Below are positions 9,347 through 48,682 of a stretch of DNA of 64,000 bases, in pieces (the first letter of the stretch is position 1; the number at the start of each line of letters is the position of its first letter). The DNA comes from Shigella phage Z31, in the sequence record MN655999; one strand, 5' to 3'. A program made the position numbers and the translations under genes. The notes beneath the pieces are model-generated. The model was not told the DNA's origin. It worked only from the letters and a program-made list of their open reading frames with translations, and ran no database searches.

Positions 9347-11300
9347 TTAATACAGGTGGAATTGTTGAGCTTTGACGTTGTTCTTCAGTATAGACTTCAC
9401 CAGTCTCACGGTCAAACACTTCATCCTCATAATGAGGTAAAGAGTCATCGTAATGGTCTTCAGCTTCACCAATACCAAACTGTTGACGAATATTTTCTGC
9501 TGCACCATCAATATCAACACCACATCCAGAAGCTTTGATAAGACGTCCTGTATCTGGATTGTACCAAGTATGACCAGCAATACCTGTTGACTTACCATGA
9601 CGACGACATTTAGTTAACTTGATTTTTGTCAAGTTTTTCTTAACAGGGTCTGGGTCAACCTTGTTACGCATTAACAAAATATTATTCATGGAAATCTGGA
9701 AATACGCACCAGAACCCTTGATATCCTCTTCAGAGATATCCCCACCTTCAGAGTTAGCTTTCTGACCACCTGCACTCTTACGAACGTGACATACGTTTAC
9801 CTGTGCGTACTGGTAGCGTTTGCAACGACGCAATAGTTCAGACAAGACTTCCTCTTCATCTGTATCAGAACGTGACAGAGCCAACGTAATAGGGTCAAGA
9901 ATAATAATCTTACAGTCTAAACTGTTAACAAGATAGTCAACAAACTCTAGCAGGTTATCTTGGTCAATTGCCCCTTGATGGTCAACGATATGGATACGAC
10001 GACCTTTAGATAGTTCTGCGTGTGCTACCTTTAATTCATCCCAATCTCGTTCATCATAAGGAATCTCAGAAATCTGCTTGCTTAGGTGGATTGCACAGAG
10101 CATCTCCATCAACTCTTCATAGGTATCTTCTACAGGAATTACACCGATATTATAATCAGTTTCTTTCCAAGCTGAATAAATCATCTCACGAGTGTAAGCT
10201 GACTTACCTACTGAAGATGGTGCTGCGATAGTCGTAATCTCGCCTAAACCGTAACCACCGTAAGTTAGCCTGTTCAAGTCCCCGAAAGATTCTGGGAAAG
10301 GAATTAATGGAATCTGACCACGATTCTTCATTGCCTCAAAACCGTCTGCAAAGTTCTTGATACCAGCAGGGCAGTAACGAGGTGCATTATAGATACGCTG
10401 CTTGAATCCTTCCAGAACTGTATCTTTCTCTTTATAAAACTTTGTCCACCATTCATTAAGGTCTTTTACACCTTCTGGATACTGGAATAAACGAACCTTC
10501 TCAATCGGAAGGATACCAGCAGCCTCTTTGGTAGCTTTAGCACCTGCTTCATCGTTATCAAAGCACAAGTAAATCTCATCAAATGATGTGATGTACTGAT
10601 AGTTGTCTTTGATAGACTTAATGTTTGCACCTGATGGAACAGATACGTGACAGTAATTCTTACGACGAGACTTATCTTTAATCGCCAAAGAAGTCATGTA
10701 GATAGCTGTCGCACATTCCATCTCACCTTCCCAGATGAACAGTCGGTTCCCACCTTCTGGAGCAATCCATGAACCGAACATTGCCAGTTCACCTTTAATA
10801 TCTCCAACGCCACCTGAAAAGTCTTTTAGCTTACCACGTAGGTGTTCTTTTGGATGGTCTTCTGGGTAACGGTGACGAACACGGTAGCCAACATGTTCTA
10901 GCTTGCCATCTTCATTACGTTTGTAAGTTGGATAGAAATGTGCATCAATTTCACCGTCACTATCAATGTCAACCTTGATACCTAAACGTTCAAGGACTTT
11001 TGCAGGAATCTTCCTATCTTTCAAGTCCATTGCTTCTAGGTTTTCTTTTACATCATCTAAATCCATTCCACGGAAAGTACGGTTTTTATTATCTGAACCA
11101 GTAGAATAAGTGCTCACGATTTGTCCTTTATCAAAATCCCACTCTGGGAAACCTTTGTTACAGCTAAAGCAAGTCATCGAATAAGAATCATCGTCATGAT
11201 GGTAGATTGAACCAGCATCTGATGAACCACAACGTGGACATGCACAATGACCAATAAACTGACCAGCCTCTTTCAATTTACGACCTTTAGACATTAGCAC
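9309..11300 (-). CDS. DNA primase-helicase (T7 gp4-like)
   Basis: 663 aa; N-terminal zinc ribbon CPRCGSSD...CFSCNKGF; primase core; C-terminal DnaB/RecA-like helicase with Walker A GLGEITTIAAPSSVGKSAYT. Confidence 0.88.
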   Translation of the reverse strand: MLMSKGRKLKEAGQFIGHCACPRCGSSDAGSIYHHDDDSYSMTCFSCNKGFPEWDFDKGQIVSTYSTGSDNKNRTFRGMDLDDVKENLEAMDLKDRKIPAKVLERLGIKVDIDSDGEIDAHFYPTYKRNEDGKLEHVGYRVRHRYPEDHPKEHLRGKLKDFSGGVGDIKGELAMFGSWIAPEGGNRLFIWEGEMECATAIYMTSLAIKDKSRRKNYCHVSVPSGANIKSIKDNYQYITSFDEIYLCFDNDEAGAKATKEAAGILPIEKVRLFQYPEGVKDLNEWWTKFYKEKDTVLEGFKQRIYNAPRYCPAGIKNFADGFEAMKNRGQIPLIPFPESFGDLNRLTYGGYGLGEITTIAAPSSVGKSAYTREMIYSAWKETDYNIGVIPVEDTYEELMEMLCAIHLSKQISEIPYDERDWDELKVAHAELSKGRRIHIVDHQGAIDQDNLLEFVDYLVNSLDCKIIILDPITLALSRSDTDEEEVLSELLRRCKRYQYAQVNVCHVRKSAGGQKANSEGGDISEEDIKGSGAYFQISMNNILLMRNKVDPDPVKKNLTKIKLTKCRRHGKSTGIAGHTWYNPDTGRLIKASGCGVDIDGAAENIRQQFGIGEAEDHYDDSLPHYEDEVFDRETGEVYTEEQRQSSTIPPVLSEDADDCPFETE

Positions 11301-11495: not shown

Positions 11496-12239
11496 TTAAA
11501 TTTTCAGGATAGCTCTTAGCTTACTTTCAAGGTCTGCAAGAGTACCATTATTATGGATAATGTCACGCGCATATTTGGTAGAAATTCCATTTTCTGAAAC
11601 ATGTGATGAAACCTTGTCCACATTGTCTCTTTTTACTTCAATAATCTGGTGTGCAAATCTACTCAGCCACTCAGCTTCAGAGTCAAACCTTAAGTCACTG
11701 ATTAAAACAACACCCTCTTGATTCATAAGTGAACAAGATTCAAAGAAGCGAGCCATTCGTTTTTCAAGGTCTTTAGCCCAGAATTTGTCACCCATAACTT
11801 TACGGATTACTTCAGTGCCCCAAATCTGTTGAATTTGTCTTGATGAGAATTTATACTTCTTGCTAAATCCCAGACGTGTCAATAGAGTTGGCTTAGCAAC
11901 CTTCTTAAGTTCCATGATTAATCGTCCGGTTAACTCCGACATAAGCTTAAAGTCCATATGGTAACGTTCATCTCTGAAGGTGAACTCCATAGCTTCCGTA
12001 ACTTTACCCATAAGTTCAGAGTATGATAAATCAAAAACCTGTGGAGTCTCTTTAGTTTCGCCGTACAGGTCATTCCATGTCAAGTCAAATATCTTTGATG
12101 CAGATAGCTTAAGATTGTCTGCATAGGCCATTACTGCAACATTGTAGCCATACTCATCTTCTAGGATATTCTTAACAATAGAGCATGAGGTATCTTTTCC
12201 AGAACGTGCCTTTCCAGTAAATGCGATAATATTACTCAT
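11496..12239 (-). CDS. deoxynucleoside monophosphate kinase (P-loop)
   Basis: N-terminus MSNIIAFTGKARSGKDT matches T4 gp1 dNMP kinase MKLIFLSGVKRSGKDT. Confidence 0.65.
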   Translation of the reverse strand: MSNIIAFTGKARSGKDTSCSIVKNILEDEYGYNVAVMAYADNLKLSASKIFDLTWNDLYGETKETPQVFDLSYSELMGKVTEAMEFTFRDERYHMDFKLMSELTGRLIMELKKVAKPTLLTRLGFSKKYKFSSRQIQQIWGTEVIRKVMGDKFWAKDLEKRMARFFESCSLMNQEGVVLISDLRFDSEAEWLSRFAHQIIEVKRDNVDKVSSHVSENGISTKYARDIIHNNGTLADLESKLRAILKI

Positions 12240-12254
12240 TTTGTCTCCCTTAAT

Positions 12255-12290
12255 TACTAAAAAGCCCCCAACTAAGGAGGCTTGTAAGAT
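12255..12290 (-). terminator. rho-independent terminator (AAGCCTCC...GGGGGCTT + T-run)
   Basis: Hairpin plus T-tract on minus strand downstream of 12301..13113. Confidence 0.45.
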
Positions 12291-12300
12291 TTATAAAGAC

Positions 12301-13113
12301 TTAGTGCAGTTGGTCACTGGTAATCTGTGAATGCTCTTTTTCAGCCATAGCTGAGATTTGCTTCACAAAATCATCACCGAAGTTAATACGCAGCTTCTCT
12401 TCAATGATTGAAGCACCAATGTTTACCAAAACATCATTGATTGCTTGCATACTGACACCACCAGTCATCTCCTCAACAAACTCAATGGTTACACCCAACA
12501 TCTGAGAAAGTTGGATTAGTGCAACGATATTCATCATTGTAGAGATAGCGGGAATCATCAGAGCAACCTTCACCTGTAGTGGTTCTACATCAGCTACAGA
12601 GTCATCTTTCACAGCTTCTGCTAAAGAGTCTTTAGTTTGCTGGATAATCTCTTTGATTCGTGGGTTTAACTCTTCTACACCCCAATCAAGTTTTTCATAT
12701 CGTGACAGCTTCTCTTCCATTCGCTTCTCAAGAGCAGCCATAACAGCACTCGTTGACGAAATTAACAGGTCAACTAGCTCATTATTATCTAAGAGTAGTA
12801 GTGAGTCTTTTTCTTCAGGTGTCATGGCAATATAGTCATTTTTCTGCATCTCATAAAAAATGAACTCTGCAAGAGCATCAACACCTACAACAATAGATGC
12901 TAAGGCAAGCTTTTTGTCACACAGCATCATATTAACCTGTTCTGCAAAAGCACCGTTATCAGACTTGTCTTTAGGCAAGTTATAGCTTGCAGGCATAAAC
13001 TGTTCTGTGTAGTTGTTTCCACGAAGAATCATAGCCATGCTTTCTACGGCATTGATTAAGAATGCTTCGTCAATACCTTTTTCTTCAAGCATCTGGTCTA
13101 CAGTAGTATTCAT
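12301..13113 (-). CDS. hypothetical protein
   Basis: ORF track 270 aa; no recognisable motif. Confidence 0.5.
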   Translation of the reverse strand: MNTTVDQMLEEKGIDEAFLINAVESMAMILRGNNYTEQFMPASYNLPKDKSDNGAFAEQVNMMLCDKKLALASIVVGVDALAEFIFYEMQKNDYIAMTPEEKDSLLLLDNNELVDLLISSTSAVMAALEKRMEEKLSRYEKLDWGVEELNPRIKEIIQQTKDSLAEAVKDDSVADVEPLQVKVALMIPAISTMMNIVALIQLSQMLGVTIEFVEEMTGGVSMQAINDVLVNIGASIIEEKLRINFGDDFVKQISAMAEKEHSQITSDQLH

Positions 13114-13114
13114 A

Positions 13115-13537
13115 TTATTTCTCTCTCAGTTGGTTAAGTTTCTTTCTAGAACATTTTAAGTTTTCAGATGAAGAAAAGTCAAGTGTCTTTTCAGAACGTG
13201 GATAGTAATGCCTATCCCAAGAAGTTTCAACATCGTTAATCAGTGACGCTAGATTACACAGGTCTGTACCACTTTGCAACCTCTTTTTAAGAGAATCTAG
13301 TAAAGCAACTGTGTCTTTAGCTTTACGCCTCGCTGTAGCAACATCTTTCATATGCTCAAATACAGAGCATTTTAAGTCATCTTCATAGTTTTCAGACAAC
13401 TCTATTTCATGTTGTATATCAACCATTCTCCTGTGATGGTGAGCATATTCCCGTTGAGCAGCAATGTCAAGTTCTTCCAACTTCTGCAAAGCTCTAACAA
13501 AGTCAGCTATGTCTGGGTGAACAAACATTTTCTGCAT
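13115..13537 (-). CDS. hypothetical protein
   Basis: ORF track 140 aa. Confidence 0.5.
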   Translation of the reverse strand: MQKMFVHPDIADFVRALQKLEELDIAAQREYAHHHRRMVDIQHEIELSENYEDDLKCSVFEHMKDVATARRKAKDTVALLDSLKKRLQSGTDLCNLASLINDVETSWDRHYYPRSEKTLDFSSSENLKCSRKKLNQLREK

Positions 13538-13678
13538 GTAAGCCTCTTTTAAGTAACTATTAAGTTTTAATCTTTTATCTTAACGTATTCTATACGTTAT
13601 ACTTTAAAGCTTTTTAAAAGCTATTAAATAATCTTTTAAGAGTTTTAAAGTATCTGTATAGTTAAACTGTTAAGTAAC

Positions 13679-13740
13679 CTTTTAAGTAAAAACCCACTTC
13701 GCAAAGATTAACACCTTGTCAAGTACATTGTCAACTTGCT
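13679..13740. promoter_or_regulatory. conserved ~60-bp element (CCTTTTAAGTAA...ACACCTTGTCAAGT..TTGTCAAC) in divergent intergenic region
   Basis: Near-identical element recurs at 55978-56045 upstream of another plus-strand early operon; spacing to TATAAT (13745) does not fit a standard sigma70 promoter. Confidence 0.4.
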
Positions 13741-13794
13741 TTTTATAATTTTTTGCAGTAATGTATGTGGTTAATGATTTTAGAGGGAGTAAAA

Positions 13795-16494
13795 ATGGAA
13801 AACGTAGATTTTAAAAACTTACATTTAGTTGGCGATACAGAAACTGATGGTTTACTCCTTGAGTTCACTAAAGTGCACGTAATGGCTTTCGCAGACTATA
13901 AATCTGACGATGAAGAGCCACCTGTATGGGTCTTTACAGATGAGCCTATCCTCGGTCACAAGTATACCAAGTACATTAAGGGTGGTTTGCGTGAAGGTGT
14001 TGAGTTTGCGTTAAAGGCAAAACGACTTTGCATCCACAATGGTCTGGGGTATGACTGGTGGGTTTTCAATCACATTGCACCCGATTTGTGGAACTTTGAT
14101 AATCCAAAGTGTAAGCCGTGGAGTAATTTCTTTCAGGATTCTCTTATCCAGTCTCGTGTTCAGTGGATGGATAGACCAACTCCAAAGGGCTATAAAGGTG
14201 CTCATGGTTTGGCTGCATGGGGTGCTCGTGTTGGTGTCCGTAAACCAGAGATTGAACATTGGGGTGTGTGGAATGCAGAAATCTTCACTCGTGTTGTGGA
14301 AGATATCCGTATTAACGCCAAAACTAAACGTGCACTGGATAATGAATATCTCAAGCTGAAGAAGTGTGGCGTAGATACTTATGAAACCTACATGCGAGCT
14401 AAAGAAACATCTTTCTGGATGAGTCAACAGGCTATCAATGGTTGGAAAGCTGATAAAGAACTTATGGAGTTCCATGTAAAGGAACTTGACAAGTTGACTA
14501 ATGAGCTTGCTTCAGAAGTTGAACCACATCTTCCTCCAACTATTAAGACCAAAGGTAAAGTCACTGGAGAAGAGTTTGCAAAAGCTTGGAATGAGTATGT
14601 TGAAGCATTTGGTCATGCAGATGGACTGAAGAGAATTACCAAGTACCCTAAGACAAAGTATCGTCAACAGGTACGTAACGGTGAGATGCAGACATATGAA
14701 ATCAAGCCGTTTGGTAAGCCAACTACAAAGATTTTTAACATTGAAAAGCGGAATTGCTATACACCAACCAACACTGTAACTGGCGAAGAGTACAAGGAAG
14801 GTTTTGTAGCAATGAAGGATGCTCGTGCAATTTGCAACGAGTTGAATGCAAAGATTGGTAAGAAATGCAAAGACTGGAAGCCAGTAAAAACAGTTAAAAC
14901 TGTGAAGTACTATAACAGTCATGTTGTTAACCACTTTGAACTTGAGTCAAGTCGCTACACAGGTTTGATTGATGCACCATATACACCAATTGAGTTCGAA
15001 GTTTCTCGTATGACTCAGGTAGCAGTTGTTAAAGACTACTTGAAATCAGTTGGTTGGATTCCAGATGACTGGAACTACAAGAAAGACTCAGATGGTCGTC
15101 CTGTTAAGGTTTGTCGTTTCAAAGACAACAAAAAGATGATTACAAAACATCCTAAGTGGGATGAGATGGTGGAACGGTGTGGTTTGAGTTATGTTGAACA
15201 TGAAGGTGTCCAGTACATTGAACATAACTGGTCTGTGAAGAAGTACACAGATTTGCTTGAGCCTTGTTTAATCCGTACTTCACCAAAACTTACTGAATCA
15301 TCTTATGATACGATTGAAGGTGAGCTTGGACAGAAGATTGCGAAATACTATACTTTGATGCACCGACGTAGAACTATTGAGAACTCAAAAGATGATGAAA
15401 AAGGTTGGTTGAACCAGATTCGTCCAGATGGTCGCCTTAGTGCTGGTGCAATGGTGTTTGGTACTTCAACTGGACGTATGACACAATATGGTATTGTAAA
15501 CGTACCGTCTGGTGCTGCTGTCTATGGAGCGCCTATGAGGGCAGTGTGGATTTGTGAAGAGGGGACTAACATTGTTTCTGTTGACCAGAACTCAGCCCAG
15601 CTAGTCCTTCTTTGTAACTTTATGGGTGATGAAGACTTCACTAAAGCAGTAACTGAGGGTAAAGAGTCAGTAGAGTTCACTAAGCAAGATGATGGTAGAT
15701 ACTACTGTAAGCATCTTGATAAGTACCTTAACCCAGAAACTGACAAGTATCTGCGTTATGATGCTGAAAATGACCTCTATGAAGTCTACACAGGGACTGA
15801 TGCGCATACACTGAACAGTATTTACTTTGGTCTTAACAAAGAAGAGGATATTGTTCGTTGCAGGGAGACACAGGATGAGGAACTTCTTCACGAGATTACA
15901 AAAGGTCGTAAGAAGAGCAAAAATGGCATCTACGCCCTGTTATTTGGAGCCGGAGACGAGAAGTTTGCAAAAACTATCAAGGCATCATCTACGGAAGAAG
16001 GTGCATTGACTAAACAAACTTACTATATGCGTCTGCCAAAGATTAAGAAGTTACTTGATAGCTTAGAAGCCGATTTTAAGGCGTCTAAAAAGGCTCTGGA
16101 AGAGGTTTTTGGGAAGAACTCTTCAATTGCTAAAGGTGGTTATATCAGGGTCGCTGGAGCATGGATATGGTGCAAATCTCCACATAAACTACTGAACTAC
16201 CTCCTGATGAGTTCGGAAGCACAGATTCAGAATGAAGCCATCAACCTAGCAGCAAGAAAAGCCTGTGAAGATGGCCTGACAAAACTGAATGCTCGAAAAC
16301 CAGCTATCGGAGCAAGGTTACTTCTGGCATATCACGACGAAAATAGTTGGGAATGCCCAGAGGGTATGACACATGATATGAAAGCAATTGCTGACTGGAT
16401 GTATGGGCAAGCTTCAAAAAACTTAGGTTTGAGGAAAGAAACACTTGTAACTGGTACAGCAAAGGTTGGTAAGAGCTGGTATGAGGTACATTGA
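13795..16494 (+). CDS. DNA polymerase, family A (T7-like) with 3'-5' exonuclease domain
   Basis: Start trimmed to MENVDFK (GAGGGAG RBS); Exo I LHLVGDTETDGL; motif B-like RKKSKNGIYALLFGAGDEKF; motif C LAYHDE. Confidence 0.9.
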   Translation: MENVDFKNLHLVGDTETDGLLLEFTKVHVMAFADYKSDDEEPPVWVFTDEPILGHKYTKYIKGGLREGVEFALKAKRLCIHNGLGYDWWVFNHIAPDLWNFDNPKCKPWSNFFQDSLIQSRVQWMDRPTPKGYKGAHGLAAWGARVGVRKPEIEHWGVWNAEIFTRVVEDIRINAKTKRALDNEYLKLKKCGVDTYETYMRAKETSFWMSQQAINGWKADKELMEFHVKELDKLTNELASEVEPHLPPTIKTKGKVTGEEFAKAWNEYVEAFGHADGLKRITKYPKTKYRQQVRNGEMQTYEIKPFGKPTTKIFNIEKRNCYTPTNTVTGEEYKEGFVAMKDARAICNELNAKIGKKCKDWKPVKTVKTVKYYNSHVVNHFELESSRYTGLIDAPYTPIEFEVSRMTQVAVVKDYLKSVGWIPDDWNYKKDSDGRPVKVCRFKDNKKMITKHPKWDEMVERCGLSYVEHEGVQYIEHNWSVKKYTDLLEPCLIRTSPKLTESSYDTIEGELGQKIAKYYTLMHRRRTIENSKDDEKGWLNQIRPDGRLSAGAMVFGTSTGRMTQYGIVNVPSGAAVYGAPMRAVWICEEGTNIVSVDQNSAQLVLLCNFMGDEDFTKAVTEGKESVEFTKQDDGRYYCKHLDKYLNPETDKYLRYDAENDLYEVYTGTDAHTLNSIYFGLNKEEDIVRCRETQDEELLHEITKGRKKSKNGIYALLFGAGDEKFAKTIKASSTEEGALTKQTYYMRLPKIKKLLDSLEADFKASKKALEEVFGKNSSIAKGGYIRVAGAWIWCKSPHKLLNYLLMSSEAQIQNEAINLAARKACEDGLTKLNARKPAIGARLLLAYHDENSWECPEGMTHDMKAIADWMYGQASKNLGLRKETLVTGTAKVGKSWYEVH

Positions 16495-16497
16495 TTA

Positions 16498-17031
16498 ATG
16501 GATTTTATTTTACAAAAACGTTTAAAGGAGCTGCTACACTATGACCCCGAAACAGGGGTCTTTACTTGGCTTCGTAGAGAAGGTAAATCAAGAGCTGTTA
16601 GTGTTTTTAACAGTAATTATGCAGGAAAGGTGGCAGGTAATATCCAGACTGATTCAAGTGGTCATAAACAGATTAGTATCTATTTTGACAAGAAAGCACA
16701 TAAAGCACACAGACTCGCATGGCTTTACGTGTATGGCAAGATGCCAAAAGGCATCATTGACCATATCAACGGAGACTCACTTGACAACAGGATTGTAAAC
16801 TTAAGGGAAGCAGATGACTTTCAAAGTGCTTGGAATAAAGGTAAGCCAGTCACCAATAAATCTGGGTACAAGGGTGTAAGTCTTAAGAAGAAGTCTGGTA
16901 AGTGGGTCGCACAGATAAGTTATAGAGGTAAGAAGATGTTTTTAGGTTATCATGACACACCTGAAGAAGCCCATAAAGCTTACTGTGAAGCTGCTGTGAA
17001 ACTCCACGGAGAGTTTGCAAAACTAAGTTGA
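16498..17031 (+). CDS. HNH homing endonuclease with AP2-type DNA-binding domain
   Basis: 177 aa; AHRLAWLYVYG...IDHINGDSLDNRIVNLR (HNH) then YKGVSLKKKSGKWVAQISYRGKKMFLGYHDTPEEAHKAY (AP2-like); begins 4 nt after polymerase stop. Confidence 0.75.
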   Translation: MDFILQKRLKELLHYDPETGVFTWLRREGKSRAVSVFNSNYAGKVAGNIQTDSSGHKQISIYFDKKAHKAHRLAWLYVYGKMPKGIIDHINGDSLDNRIVNLREADDFQSAWNKGKPVTNKSGYKGVSLKKKSGKWVAQISYRGKKMFLGYHDTPEEAHKAYCEAAVKLHGEFAKLS

Positions 17032-17082
17032 CAAGGTGCTCATGGAAGAGTACCTTATACAATATCTTATATAGGAGGTTAT

Positions 17083-17295
17083 ATGACACTTTCAGACGTT
17101 ATTCAGCAACTTCACGACAACTGCTATACTCCAGAGTTGATTCAAGAGATGCTTATTGTGGTGATGCCTAGTAAGTTCGTAAAAGGTTTTAATAGTGAAT
17201 CTTTAAAATCTGCGCATATCCTTATTGTTGACGGTAAGATTGCAAGAGACCGTACAGGAGTCCTTAAGGGTGAACGTATTAGTATTGACATCTGA
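17083..17295 (+). CDS. hypothetical protein
   Basis: ORF track 70 aa; AGGAGG RBS. Confidence 0.5.
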   Translation: MTLSDVIQQLHDNCYTPELIQEMLIVVMPSKFVKGFNSESLKSAHILIVDGKIARDRTGVLKGERISIDI

Positions 17296-17312
17296 GTATT
17301 AGGGACACCAAA

Positions 17313-17468
17313 ATGAAACGCAAAGTAAAATTATTTAGCTTATATGGAAGAGTCGGTAAAGGTTTTGATTGGCAACTGCTACGTTCAGATGTTAAAAGCA
17401 ACGAGTTAGCACAGCTCATCATAGACTACCGGCGTACATATAGAGAAGTAGAACATCGTGAACAATAA
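17313..17468 (+). CDS. small protein (51 aa), unknown
   Basis: ATG with weak RBS; MKRKVKLFSLYGRVGKGFDWQ...; below track cutoff. Confidence 0.3.
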   Translation: MKRKVKLFSLYGRVGKGFDWQLLRSDVKSNELAQLIIDYRRTYREVEHREQ

Positions 17469-17483
17469 AACAGGAGATGTGTT

Positions 17484-17720
17484 ATGTGGAAAGCAGTAAT
17501 TGCACTTGGTGTTATTTTTCTAGCTGGGTGCAACCCTTCTTATGAAGATAAAAACGCTTCTTACAGTCTCCCACCAGAAATGCAAGATTGTAAAGTCTAT
17601 AAGCTAAATGGGGATGCAATAAGCACAGATATTGTTGTTGTAAGATGTCCAAACTCTCAAACGACAACATCTTATCGTTATGGTAAAAATAGTCAATCAC
17701 ACACTACGGTTATTGAGTGA
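17484..17720 (+). CDS. predicted lipoprotein
   Basis: 78 aa; signal peptide and lipobox MWKAVIALGVIFLAGC; AGGAG RBS. Confidence 0.6.
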   Translation: MWKAVIALGVIFLAGCNPSYEDKNASYSLPPEMQDCKVYKLNGDAISTDIVVVRCPNSQTTTSYRYGKNSQSHTTVIE

Positions 17721-17730
17721 GGTTTTTACG

Positions 17731-17937
17731 ATGCAAGTCTTAGTAAACTATATCTACTGTTATGATACTGTTCACTCCACTACAACCTTAGCTCAACGTA
17801 ACCCAATCGTCCCACGAGAAGGTGAGTTTGTTCGAATCGAGGGTTGGACTTACACTGTGGAAAGCATCATTCATAAGTTTGATGTTGCTGGTGATGTTCA
17901 AGTTATTGACGTAGAAATTGGTGGTAAGAGAAAATGA
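17731..17937 (+). CDS. hypothetical protein
   Basis: ORF track trimmed to MQVLVNY (GAGG RBS). Confidence 0.4.
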   Translation: MQVLVNYIYCYDTVHSTTTLAQRNPIVPREGEFVRIEGWTYTVESIIHKFDVAGDVQVIDVEIGGKRK

Positions 17938-19042: not shown

Positions 19043-19071
19043 GTTGACATAGAAAATTTGGTGAGTATACT
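19043..19071 (+). promoter_or_regulatory. sigma70-type promoter TTGACA-16-TATACT
   Basis: Consensus -35, 16-bp spacer, near-consensus -10 directly after ligase stop. Confidence 0.6.
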
Positions 19072-19101: not shown

Positions 19102-19260
19102 CATCACTTAAGAGTCTTCTAAGAGGGTTTTTAAGTGATGTTCGGTATGGTGCGGTAGTGTTTGGTTGGGTATGGCTTTGTATGGTCTGGTAATGTAGGG
19201 TCGGGCGCGGTATGGGTGGATGGTAGTAGCCACGTTAAAAATCTACCAAGTTTCTAAAGA
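19102..19260 (+). repeat. repeat unit A: 10-bp-stem hairpin (CATCACTTAA...TTAAGTGATG) followed by GT-rich tract of GGTNTGG-like motifs
   Basis: Same hairpin and GT-rich tract recur at 20390-20930. Confidence 0.65.
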
Positions 19261-19305
19261 GTCTTCTGTTGAGGGTTCTTTACAAACAACTTAACAATAA
19301 ACTAA

Positions 19306-19911
<606 letters not shown>

Positions 19912-19913
19912 TT

Positions 19914-20354
19914 ATGAATACAAAAGCATTAGCAGCAAAGTTTAGTTACGGTGACACTGTATCACATTCTGAGATGGATACCTTCTTAGGTATTGTGAAG
20001 CCAACTTATCAAGGTGACATTGTTAAGTACGAAGATGAAATGAAGGCTTATGCACTTACACGTCTAAACCGACTTGAGAAGTTTATTGAGAAGCTTCTTA
20101 AAGAAGAGAAGATTTATCTGGTTGCTTCAATGGGTGTTGGCTATCGTGTGGTTGAACCTAAGCATCAAGCAACTATTGCAAAACGTAAAATGTCTGGTAA
20201 GATTGGTCGTGCTTTAAAGCAAGCCACTCAAGCGATTGAGAATGTGAACACTATGGCACTTAGTCATCAAGAACGTTCACGACTGATTGAACAGCAAAAC
20301 CATTTAGCTGCTATGAAAGCTAACATTAACAAGCAACGTAGAAAACCTTTCTAA
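19914..20354 (+). CDS. hypothetical protein
   Basis: ORF track 146 aa. Confidence 0.5.
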   Translation: MNTKALAAKFSYGDTVSHSEMDTFLGIVKPTYQGDIVKYEDEMKAYALTRLNRLEKFIEKLLKEEKIYLVASMGVGYRVVEPKHQATIAKRKMSGKIGRALKQATQAIENVNTMALSHQERSRLIEQQNHLAAMKANINKQRRKPF

Positions 20355-20364
20355 GTTGACTAGG

Positions 20365-20392
20365 TAGCCTCTTCGGAGGCTCCTTTTTAAAA
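20365..20392 (+). terminator. rho-independent terminator (AGCCTC-TTCG-GAGGCT + TTTTT)
   Basis: Perfect hairpin and T-run immediately after 19914..20354. Confidence 0.6.
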
Positions 20393-20930
20393 GGTCTTTA
20401 AACATGGTCTTTTAATAAGGTTGGGTCTGGTGTGGTAAGGTTGGGTAAGGTGCGGTTTGGCGTGGTTTTGTCTGGTGCGGTCTGGTATGGGTAGTTAATC
20501 GGAGCTACATTAAAATTCGATTACATCACTTAAGAGTCTTCTAAGAGGATTTTTAAGTGATGTATTGTGATGTATTGTTCGGTATGGTAAGGCAAGGCTA
20601 GGTCTGGTGTGGGTAGTTAGTCTCATCTACATTAAAATGAGACTCATCTTTTTAAAAGGTCTTTAAACAGGGTTTTTAATAAGGTGATGAGAAGTGGTGT
20701 TAGGTTTGGTGTGGTTCTGTGCGGTACGGTTAAGTAAGGTGAGGTATGGGTAGTTAATCGGAGCTACATTAAAATTCGATTACATCACTTAAGGGTCTTC
20801 TAAGAGGATTTTTAAGCGATGCTCGGTCGGGTTTGGTCGGGTTTGGTATGGTATGGTGTGGTAAGGTAGGGTTTGGTATGGAAGGATGGCAGTAGCCTTA
20901 TAAAAAATCTGCCAAATAAGCTATAAAATC
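20393..20930 (+). repeat. tandem complex repeats (~2.5 units of ~260 bp): GT-rich tracts plus two hairpin types
   Basis: Repeated blocks AAAGGTCTTTAAACA.GG.TTTTAATAAGGT, GGTNTGG runs, GTAGTTAATCGGAGCTACATTAAAATTCGATTACATCACTTAAG (20497 and 20757) and variant AGTCTCATCTACATTAAAATGAGACTCATC (20616). Confidence 0.7.
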
Positions 20931-20932
20931 TG

Positions 20933-20961
20933 TTGACAAGTCAGGTGTTATAGCCTATTTT
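20933..20961 (+). promoter_or_regulatory. candidate promoter TTGACA-17-TATTTT
   Basis: Consensus -35 with weak -10 upstream of 21006 gene. Confidence 0.35.
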
Positions 20962-21005: not shown

Positions 21006-21389
21006 ATGAAAAAGATTTTATTAGCTGCTGCAATGGTTATGGCAATGAATTTACCAGTCAATGCAACAGAACTTCCCAATGTGGACTTATCAGGTGTTCC
21101 AGAAGACACTTGCCAGATTGTAAAAGGTGTTGCGCTATCTAATGGTGAGTTGCTTAAACCAATCTCTGAAGAGTCTTTGACAGAGATGACTGACAAGGTA
21201 ACTGACTATCAGTACCGTGTTCTTGCAGAGTATTTCCTGCAATCTGCAAACATTAAAGAGAAGCACCATGACGATATTGATGCACAGGCTATGCTCAATC
21301 ATCGTATTCAGTTTAAAGAAGATTTGATGCAAAAAGCTATGTATGGTGTTGAGTATTTCTTAGAAAACAGAAGCTGCACAGGTATTTGA
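21006..21389 (+). CDS. secreted/periplasmic protein with signal peptide
   Basis: 127 aa; MKKILLAAAMVMAMNLPVNA signal peptide. Confidence 0.55.
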   Translation: MKKILLAAAMVMAMNLPVNATELPNVDLSGVPEDTCQIVKGVALSNGELLKPISEESLTEMTDKVTDYQYRVLAEYFLQSANIKEKHHDDIDAQAMLNHRIQFKEDLMQKAMYGVEYFLENRSCTGI

Positions 21390-21390
21390 T

Positions 21391-21603
21391 ATGGCTCTTA
21401 AAAAGTTACATCCCAGAAGCGGTTATGGTAAGATAATTGATGATACAGACGGCTTTACAGTCTTTACAGTTATCTGTCAAGATGATTCACAGATTGAAAA
21501 GGCTCTTGATGATTATCTTAACGATGAACGTGAAAAGGTTAGGGCTACAAACATAGATTCACTGATTGACACCCCACGCAAACGGAAGAAGAAAGATGAA
21601 TGA
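21391..21603 (+). CDS. hypothetical protein
   Basis: ORF track 70 aa. Confidence 0.45.
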   Translation: MALKKLHPRSGYGKIIDDTDGFTVFTVICQDDSQIEKALDDYLNDEREKVRATNIDSLIDTPRKRKKKDE

Positions 21604-21895
21604 GGTTTTTGACCCTTATGCTCCACAAGATGATTGGGAGGCTGACAGAGAGGCTGAAATGGAGAGTTATATTTGTCCAATGGATGTAGATGAAATGAGA
21701 GACTTCGTTGCACATCGTTTTAAGAGAGAGATTAAATCCAGAGGTCTTTCTCAAGAGCAAGTTGCTAAGATTTGTGGTATCTCTCAGGCTCGTGTATCCA
21801 ACATAATCAATCTCACTGGTAATGTCTCTCTTGAGTTTATGTTGGAAGTATGTGAAAAATTTGGTGTTAATTTTAATTTAAGGTTGGCAGATTAA
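21596..21895 (+). CDS. helix-turn-helix DNA-binding protein
   Basis: Start trimmed to MNEVFDPY; C-terminal GLSQEQVAKICGISQARVSNII is an XRE/Cro-like HTH. Confidence 0.5.
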   Translation: MNEVFDPYAPQDDWEADREAEMESYICPMDVDEMRDFVAHRFKREIKSRGLSQEQVAKICGISQARVSNIINLTGNVSLEFMLEVCEKFGVNFNLRLAD

Positions 21896-48455: not shown

Positions 48456-48508
48456 ATACTCATAGCAGGGCATTATTATTATTTTAATTGAGAGAGAGTA
48501 AAATAACT

Positions 48509-48584
48509 TGGAGAATCCGAAGGGACTCGAACCCTTATAAACCTGTTTTGCAGACAGGCACATAGCCATTTCTGTCACGGATTC
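48509..48584 (-). tRNA. tRNA-Cys (anticodon GCA)
   Basis: Hand-folded cloverleaf: acceptor GAATCCG/CGGATTC, anticodon loop CTGCAAA, T-arm GGTTCGAGTCC, CCA encoded. Confidence 0.7.
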
Positions 48585-48588
48585 AAAT

Positions 48589-48681
48589 TGGAGGAAGATA
48601 CCAGACTTGAACTGGTACACCGATTTCTCAGCTACTGGCAGTTTAGCAAACTGCTCCCTTACCTTTTAGGGTTAATCTTCC
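48589..48681 (-). tRNA. tRNA-Ser (anticodon GCT), type II
   Basis: Acceptor GGAAGAT/ATCTTCC, anticodon loop TTGCTAA, long variable arm, T-arm CCAGTTCAAGTCTGG. Confidence 0.65.
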
Positions 48682-48682
48682 A

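Follow-up and report, generated by a model that had tools for sequence, protein, structure and literature searches.

The duplicated intergenic element of the Felix O1-like Shigella phage Z31 probably represents paired leftward sigma-70-type promoters with a doubled -35 hexamer

The window analyzed here, a stretch of 64,000 nucleotides from Shigella phage Z31 (sequence record MN655999), is a Felix O1-like phage genome (Felixounavirus). A megablast search with positions 12000–16000 matched 261 phage records, mostly Felixounavirus from Escherichia or Salmonella, and the best match was Salmonella phage SP116, with about 96% identity over the full length. Felix O1 and its relatives are common in Salmonella typing, biocontrol and phage therapy, and their transcription programme is essentially unmapped. 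The genes of Felix O1 have been grouped into four "transcriptons" (genes 97–131/1–23, 96–80, 40–24 and 41–79), with the divergent intergenic regions 96/97 and 40/41 between them (Whichard et al., 2010, Viruses 2:710, PMC3185647). The gene order of Z31 is that of Felix O1 but inverted relative to the published map. The first divergent region (site 1) is positioned between the gene 97 homologue on the minus strand (start at 13537) and the DNA polymerase gene on the plus strand (ATG at 13795). The second (site 2) is positioned between the gene 41 homologue, a DUF5681 gene on the minus strand (start at 55889), and the gene 40 homologue on the plus strand (ATG at 56139). The two copies of the repeat described below therefore occupy the only two divergent control regions of the window. 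Cumulative GC skew shows local minima in both regions, at 13700 and 56000, and tracks gene orientation. Elsewhere, a G+C-rich terminator-like hairpin is present as inverted copies (81% complementary) at 12251–12297 and 62984–63030, 50 kb apart.

An earlier note on this sequence had described an element of about 60 bp at 13679–13740 and 55978–56045. The duplication is real, and all three of its blocks were found at both places. The CCTTTTAAGTAA block is located at 13679–13690 in site 1 and 55982–55993 in site 2, the ACACCTTGTCAAGT block at 13711–13724 and 56016–56029, and the TTGTCAAC block at 13728–13735 and 56033–56040. The element is not contiguous, however, and the filler between the first two blocks, 20 nt in site 1 and 22 nt in site 2, is unrelated. 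The 25-nt core ACACCTTGTCAAGTnnnTTGTCAAC occurs only at 13711–13735 and 56016–56040, with 0 occurrences expected by chance; searched with its 3 free positions and 3 mismatches allowed, it returned the same two sites only, and 0/100 dinucleotide shuffles gave a match. Local alignment of the whole intergenic regions scored 104 over about 180 nt, compared with 46 ± 7.6 (maximum 70) in 300 shuffles. Judged by this alignment, the two intergenic regions are paralogous over about 180 nt, which is wider than had been noticed before.

In the core, the repeated plus-strand TTGTCAA corresponds to a near-palindromic TTGACAA on the minus strand, and read in that direction both sites have the order of parts of a sigma-70-type promoter. 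Read from 13734 to 13705, site 1 is composed of ATAAAAAGCAAG, TTGACA, ATGTACTTGACAAGGTGT and TAATCT. The A-rich upstream tract ATAAAAAGCAAG (13735–13746, minus strand) resembles a proximal UP element, and its AAAAAGCAAG is invariant in six lineages. The outer TTGACA (13729–13734), which would be the -35 hexamer of the promoter for the gene 97 homologue, is invariant in all lineages. An inner TTGACA (13717–13722), also invariant, lies in the spacer and begins 12 nt after the start of the outer one, and the linker between them varies at 3/6 positions. The -10 hexamer TAATCT is preceded by TGT (together 13705–13713), an extended -10-like TGn, and the spacer is 18 nt long. In site 1 orthologues the -10 is TAATCT or TAGTCT, always with TGn in front. 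The TTACTTAAAAGG block (13679–13690), of which CCTTTTAAGTAA is the complement, would lie approximately at +9 to +20 of the leftward transcript predicted from this site. Site 2, read on the minus strand from 56039 to 56011, is composed of TTAAAAAAGTTG, TTGACA, AAGGACTTGACAAGGTG and TAGGCT. Its A-rich tract TTAAAAAAGTTG (56040–56051) has an A-run conserved in six lineages, and the outer -35 TTGACA of the gene 41 homologue promoter (56034–56039) corresponds to position 21515 of Felix O1, where it belongs to "P41". The inner TTGACA (56022–56027) is again invariant and again begins 12 nt after the outer start, the -10 TAGGCT (56011–56016) follows a 17-nt spacer, and the TTACTTAAAAGG block (55982–55993) would span about +12 to +23 of the leftward transcript. 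From the position of the -10 boxes, the leftward starts are predicted at about 13698 (site 1) and about 56004 (site 2).

The -35 hexamers at 13734–13729 and 56039–56034 match the sigma-70 consensus at 6/6 positions and do not change across lineages. The spacers of 18 and 17 nt fall within 17 ± 1 nt and keep their lengths in the orthologues, and both sites lie in noncoding DNA upstream of the minus-strand genes starting at 13537 and 55889. It had been remarked that the spacing does not fit sigma-70, which is correct for the plus strand only; on the minus strand it is canonical, as TTGACA-N18-TAATCT and TTGACA-N17-TAGGCT. Both -10 boxes keep T1, A2 and T6 and match TATAAT at only 3/6 positions, so that both sites were missed by a consensus scan with a cut-off of 4/6. 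With sequence, geometry, orientation and conservation directly observed, and initiation, start sites and timing inferred, we consider it quite probable that the two copies represent paralogous promoters of the sigma-70 type, which lie on the minus strand and drive the leftward operons. Several features count against this reading. The -10 boxes are poor matches, the leaders would have a considerable length (about 160 and 115 nt), and an ordinary promoter does not need the second invariant TTGACA in its spacer.

The same promoter type is found at other positions in the window. When both strands were scanned for TTGACA-N16-18-TAnnnT, 17 matches were obtained, with both sites among them on the minus strand, and 16/17 are co-oriented with the local genes. 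The upstream signature "AAAAAG..G TTGACA" is also present at 55505, 54002, 53911 and 52422 on the minus strand and at 19044 and 20933 on the plus strand, and TGTTGACA is the most enriched 8-mer of noncoding DNA. The positions 52422, 53911 and 54002 are sigma-70-type promoter candidates internal to an array of 24 tRNA genes on the minus strand (48500–53860). Related cores in reverse orientation had been reported near 17029 and 20933. The first of them holds, with an exact TTGACAAGGTG at 17028–17038 on the plus strand, while 20933 (plus strand) shares only TTGACAAG. Both are the -35 boxes of ordinary plus-strand promoter candidates co-oriented with the local genes, TTGACA(AGGTG)-N17-TACCTT (17028–17056) ahead of the ORF at 17083, and TTGACA-N17-TATTTT (20933–20961) ahead of the ORF at 21006. 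This part of the genome also contains a noncoding repeat of about 100 nt in four copies (19102–19200, 20382–20480, 20524–20622 and 20783–20881), each made up of a 40-nt hairpin (CATCACTTAAGAGTCTTCTAAGAGGnTTTTTAAGTGATG) and then a G/T-rich GGTnnGGT run. Judged by the coordinate offset relative to its annotation, SP116 appears to be without about 1.4 kb of the 19102–20881 repeat region.

Conservation was followed in orthologous regions from Felix O1, Citrobacter phage Michonne (Mooglevirus) and Erwinia phage phiEa104 (Kolesnikvirus), and further in IMG/VR contigs and two more Kolesnikvirus-like phages. Invariant features in Felixounavirus, Mooglevirus and related lineages are the two TTGACA hexamers, the A-tract and T1, A2 and T6 of the -10, while the 6-nt linker and -10 positions 3–5 vary. 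In the gene 41 promoter, 0/12 hexamer columns but 6/6 linker columns vary among six lineages. The linkers read AAGGAC, TTCCTC, AGCCTC, AGGGGA and AATGAC, and the -10 reads TAGGCT, TAGCCT, TAAGTT or TAGTGT, with only T1, A2 and T6 fixed. In the gene 97 promoter, the arrangement AAAAAGCAAG-TTGACA-A...C-TTGACA-(A/G)GGTG(T/G)-TA(A/G)TCT is fixed and three linker positions vary. This pattern in the gene 41 and gene 97 promoters is the one expected of a minus-strand sigma-70 promoter. The compared intergenic regions are 89–92% identical overall, and part of the conservation is due to shared ancestry because most of the genomes are close relatives. At the orthologous position, the Kolesnikvirus phages have a single leftward promoter, TTGACA-N17/18-TACATT, and the leftward direction is therefore ancestral.

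The earlier note had taken the element for a promoter or operator of the two plus-strand operons. In that model, TTGTCAA-N5-TTGTCAA on the plus strand would be an activator site or a phage-specific promoter element for the polymerase and gene 40 operons, in the manner of Pho boxes, lambda CII sites or the MotA boxes that stand in for the -35 in T4. The core does lie upstream of both plus-strand operons, and each site has a -10-like hexamer 8 nt past the core, TATAAT (13744) at site 1 and TAACTT (56049) at site 2. This candidate -10 box was rejected, however, for it is not conserved: the TATAAT position (13744–13749) is occupied in the related lineages by unrelated sequence such as GTGTCG, TGAAGA, TCATAA, TGAAAC and TCAAAA, and TAACTT likewise changes. 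The distance from the core to the start codon of the plus-strand gene is not fixed either, being 60 nt at site 1 and 99 nt at site 2. An activator-dependent or phage-specific promoter would be marked by a motif with constant spacing to a conserved -10 on the strand of the regulated gene, and this was found at neither site. The plus-strand T-run after the core, being the complement of the A-tract at the proximal UP element position, is accounted for by the leftward promoter. The repeat period of 12 nt is unlike that of Pho boxes (11) or CII sites (10). Furthermore, Felix O1 is without a reported MotA- or AsiA-like factor (PMC3185647).

The rightward operons have promoter candidates that are independent of the element, which also argues against a plus-strand role. 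The DNA polymerase candidate TTGCTT-N17-TAATGT (13736–13764, plus strand) is below the scan threshold and stands back to back with the leftward promoter. Its TTGCTT (13736–13741) is provided by the complement of the site 1 A-tract, its -10 (13759–13764) is TAATGT, TAAGGT, TAGGGT or TAGTGT in six lineages, and its 17-nt spacer is constant in length and variable in sequence. The candidate for the gene 40 operon at 56139, TTGACT-N17-TACCAT (56065–56093, plus strand), is identical in Michonne and invariant across lineages. With these points together, a plus-strand promoter element is very improbable, and the interpretation given in the earlier note is largely overturned, the wrong strand having been used. 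What stands is that a duplicated and conserved transcription-control sequence is common to the two control regions.

In the sigma-70 reading, host RNA polymerase with sigma-70 would bind both sites and transcribe leftward. Each promoter would consist, in order, of a UP-like A-tract, a perfect -35 TTGACA, a spacer of 17 or 18 nt with a second TTGACA, and a weak TAnnnT -10, and the conserved start of the transcript would include TTACTTAAAAGG. The operon served by site 1 would be that of replication and nucleotide metabolism (from Felix O1 gene 97 on), and that served by site 2 the gene 41, tRNA and structural operon, while the DNA polymerase and gene 40 operons would use their own promoters immediately to the right of the core. 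The -35 boxes of the leftward and rightward promoters of site 1 are back to back and 1 bp apart, so two polymerase footprints must overlap, and polymerase molecules probably compete between the divergent promoters. Back-to-back divergent promoter pairs of bacterial and phage control regions resemble site 1 in this, whereas the promoters of site 2 are about 25 bp further apart than those of site 1.

The homologue of site 2 had already been predicted as a host-RNA-polymerase-type promoter in Felix O1 (Whichard et al., 2010). This P41 is the same locus, with TTGACA at 21515 directed toward gene 41 from within the 40/41 intergenic region. As published, the TTGACA is paired with TATAGG over a 15-nt spacer (PMC3185647). 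TATAGG is present in Felix O1 alone, however, and the lineage comparison favors N17-TAGGCT. The description of P41 passes over the second TTGACA without comment, and no other obviously homologous sequence was reported in the 40–41 or 96–97 regions, so that the paralogue at site 1 was missed (PMC3185647). No phage RNA polymerase or sigma modifier was reported for Felix O1, and its temporal control was left unexplained (PMC3185647). The only published expression data are from end-point RT-PCR, in which Felix O1 ORFs 41, 96 and 97 were maximal at 25 min (PMC3185647). The description of the operons as "early", an assumption of the earlier note, is hence unproven. Our literature search for mapped transcription starts or RNA-seq of Ounavirinae phages found none, and a search of the BPROM table of phage UAB_Phi87 for TTGACAA, TAGGCT and TAATCT gave nothing attributable to either site. 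The correct strand assignment settles which operons the two control regions drive. In addition, site 1 provides a gene 97 promoter, which had not been found in the genome paper, and exact start predictions on the minus strand are obtained (about 13698 and 56004).

Among strong sigma-70 promoters with UP elements, rrnB P1 of E. coli and the early promoters of T5 and T7 have an A-rich tract before the -35, TTGACA and a spacer of 17–18 nt, and they are used by unmodified host polymerase. Sites 1 and 2 are like these promoters in A-tract, TTGACA and spacer, and unlike them in having a weak -10 (3/6) and a conserved second TTGACA in the spacer. Apart from the conserved tandem -35, both sites are probably an ordinary pair of host-type phage promoters. 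The second TTGACA is a small and well-defined oddity of promoter architecture, and the one feature that merits experiment. To our knowledge, a conserved second TTGACA in the spacer of a sigma-70 promoter has no precedent, and a literature search for tandem -35 promoters found none for a conserved tandem -35.

Exact TTGACA-N6-TTGACA occurs only at sites 1 and 2 in the window, and one mismatch gives 4 matches against 0.8 expected. Outside the window, a third promoter with doubled TTGACA was found in Felix O1 at 11269 (before ORF22) and in Michonne at 77728 (minus strand), and a doubled promoter is also present in phiEa104 at 16494. The two hexamers repeat with a period of 12 nt at sites 1 and 2 and of 13 nt at Felix O1 11269. 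All these doubled promoters share a downstream sequence of the GGGTTT...CT(T)AAAAGG type (GGGTTT..CTAAAAGG at the third promoter). The inner TTGACA was considered as the -35 of an overlapping second promoter and rejected: at site 1 there is no TAnnnT 15–19 nt downstream, and at site 2 the candidate TACTTA is not conserved. Lacking a -10 partner at a usable distance, the inner hexamer does not form a second promoter. Our best guess is that it may be an auxiliary site where sigma region 4 or polymerase docks, which would aid promoters with a weak -10.

Another possibility, compatible with the sigma-70 reading, is that TTGACA-N6-TTGACA is an operator bound by a regulator that shuts off or switches the promoters. 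At site 1 such a regulator could shift the balance to the overlapping polymerase promoter. The candidates for it are a host factor or a 99-aa Xre-type HTH_3 protein (21596–21895, plus strand). This protein has a sub-threshold Sigma70_r4 match, and its top PDB sequence match is a "CAP REPEAT" entry, 8vd6. The invariance of the inner hexamer, equal to that of the outer one beside a linker free to vary, would fit an operator, as would its lack of a -10 box at a usable distance and the recurrence of the doubled design at Felix O1 11269, at Michonne 77728 and once in phiEa104 (16494). The HTH protein is present in Felix O1 and Michonne and was not detected by tblastn in phiEa104, where the promoters of gene 41 and gene 97 each contain only one TTGACA. 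This is a weak hint, the correlation being based on two clades only, and phiEa104 keeps one doubled promoter without the protein. The conserved unit, moreover, is exactly the asymmetric -35 hexamer, with no dyad, and a repeat period of 12–13 bp is unusual for head-to-tail dimers. A dyad operator of the Cro/CI type was likewise not found, for the CTTGACAAG palindrome of the window is degenerate elsewhere, being lost in several lineages (ATTGACAAG, CTTGACAAC and CTTGACATT), while TTGACA is invariant. Conservation of the asymmetric hexamer and not of the palindrome argues against a classic dyad operator and for a reader of TTGACA resembling sigma region 4. Among host regulator consensus sites (Pho box, OmpR, ArcA, IHF, DnaA box and sigma-32), none is known to fit the 12-nt period or the sequence. 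Overall, an operator at the doubled hexamer is rather unlikely.

A parallel is provided by the lambda CII and P22 C1 activator sites, where TTGC-N6-TTGC straddles the -35 of PRE. They resemble sites 1 and 2 in their TTG-initial direct repeats and weak core elements. The sites described here are nevertheless not of the CII type, since the period is 12–13 nt and not 10, and the unit is the full sigma-70 -35 consensus. Felix O1 is moreover a virulent phage, and a CII-like protein was not detected; the sole HTH protein examined is of a generic Xre type.

The doubled hexamer may also have no function and be a relic, an old 12-bp tandem duplication copied together with the control region and retained through close kinship. 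The paralogy of the two intergenic regions over about 180 nt and the overall identity of 89–92% agree with this, and TTGACAATGTAC and TTGACAAGGTGT resemble a diverged tandem 12-mer. The gene 41 set, with 0/12 variable hexamer columns against 6/6 in the linker, is hard to square with neutral drift. The doubled form has been kept at three paralogous sites, and also in one Kolesnikvirus promoter in spite of a polymerase identity of about 62%, which makes a functionless relic decidedly improbable. A broader and speculative proposal, which we hold to be fairly unlikely, is that the tandem -35 (TTGACA-N6-TTGACA) marks out a separate conserved promoter class, with three members in each genome of the Felix O1-like phages. 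The second hexamer would then be a regulatory site, contacted by the small HTH protein of the phage or a second time by sigma region 4, and would time or switch transcription between the paired divergent operons. If true, this class would answer the question left in 2010 of how expression is ordered in a phage that has neither its own polymerase nor its own sigma factor.

Downstream of the promoters, the leader sequences are themselves conserved. The predicted 5' leader of the gene 97 homologue (13538–13698, minus strand, about 160 nt) is A+T-rich and contains three copies of CTTAAAAG and palindromes. The predicted leader of the gene 41 homologue (55890–56004, minus strand, about 115 nt) is almost invariant across genera, and mean column identity in the gene 41 region alignment is 92%. 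The motif CTTTTAAG is clustered in the two divergent regions, which hold 5/13 of its plus-strand copies (at 13546, 13633, 13679, 55921 and 55983). On the leftward mRNAs these copies are CUUAAAAG repeats, the last of which in each leader overlaps the ribosome-binding site. A palindrome in the gene 97 leader (13581–13597), AACGTAT-aga-ATACGTT, is ATGTAT-aac-ATACAT in Mooglevirus, with both arms changed. The consensus fold of this leader is weakly supported (-15 kcal/mol, 2 covarying pairs, positive covariation term) and leaves the palindrome compatible with a local hairpin or with long-range pairing. Rfam returned no family in the leaders, and the 24 tRNAs only. A boxA/boxB arrangement like that of lambda nut was also considered for the leaders and rejected, because conservation is limited to CTTAAAAG, with CTCTTA changing to GACTTA or CCCTTA.

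Long, A+T-rich, highly conserved and palindrome-bearing leaders could point to a second role, in which the promoters are also replication origins and transcription from a strong promoter into the untranslated region primes or activates replication, as in T4 and T7. The cumulative GC skew minima coincide with both sites, and the doubled promoter of phiEa104 points into a 1.4-kb noncoding repeat array. The skew, however, follows gene orientation and thus carries no independent information on an origin. Sites 1 and 2 are without adjacent iterons, and nowhere does the sequence separate an origin from an ordinary mRNA leader, so we regard an origin function of the two sites as highly unlikely. Another noncoding region of the window, of 1 kb at 62988–64000, corresponds to the ORF23/24 gap of Felix O1 and contains a CTTAACA(G) repeat array (repeats at 63629–63850). 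At the equivalent position, phiEa104 16471–17900 has TTCTAAAC-type arrays directly 3' of its doubled-TTGACA promoter. The 62988–64000 repeat region is a possible origin or packaging region.
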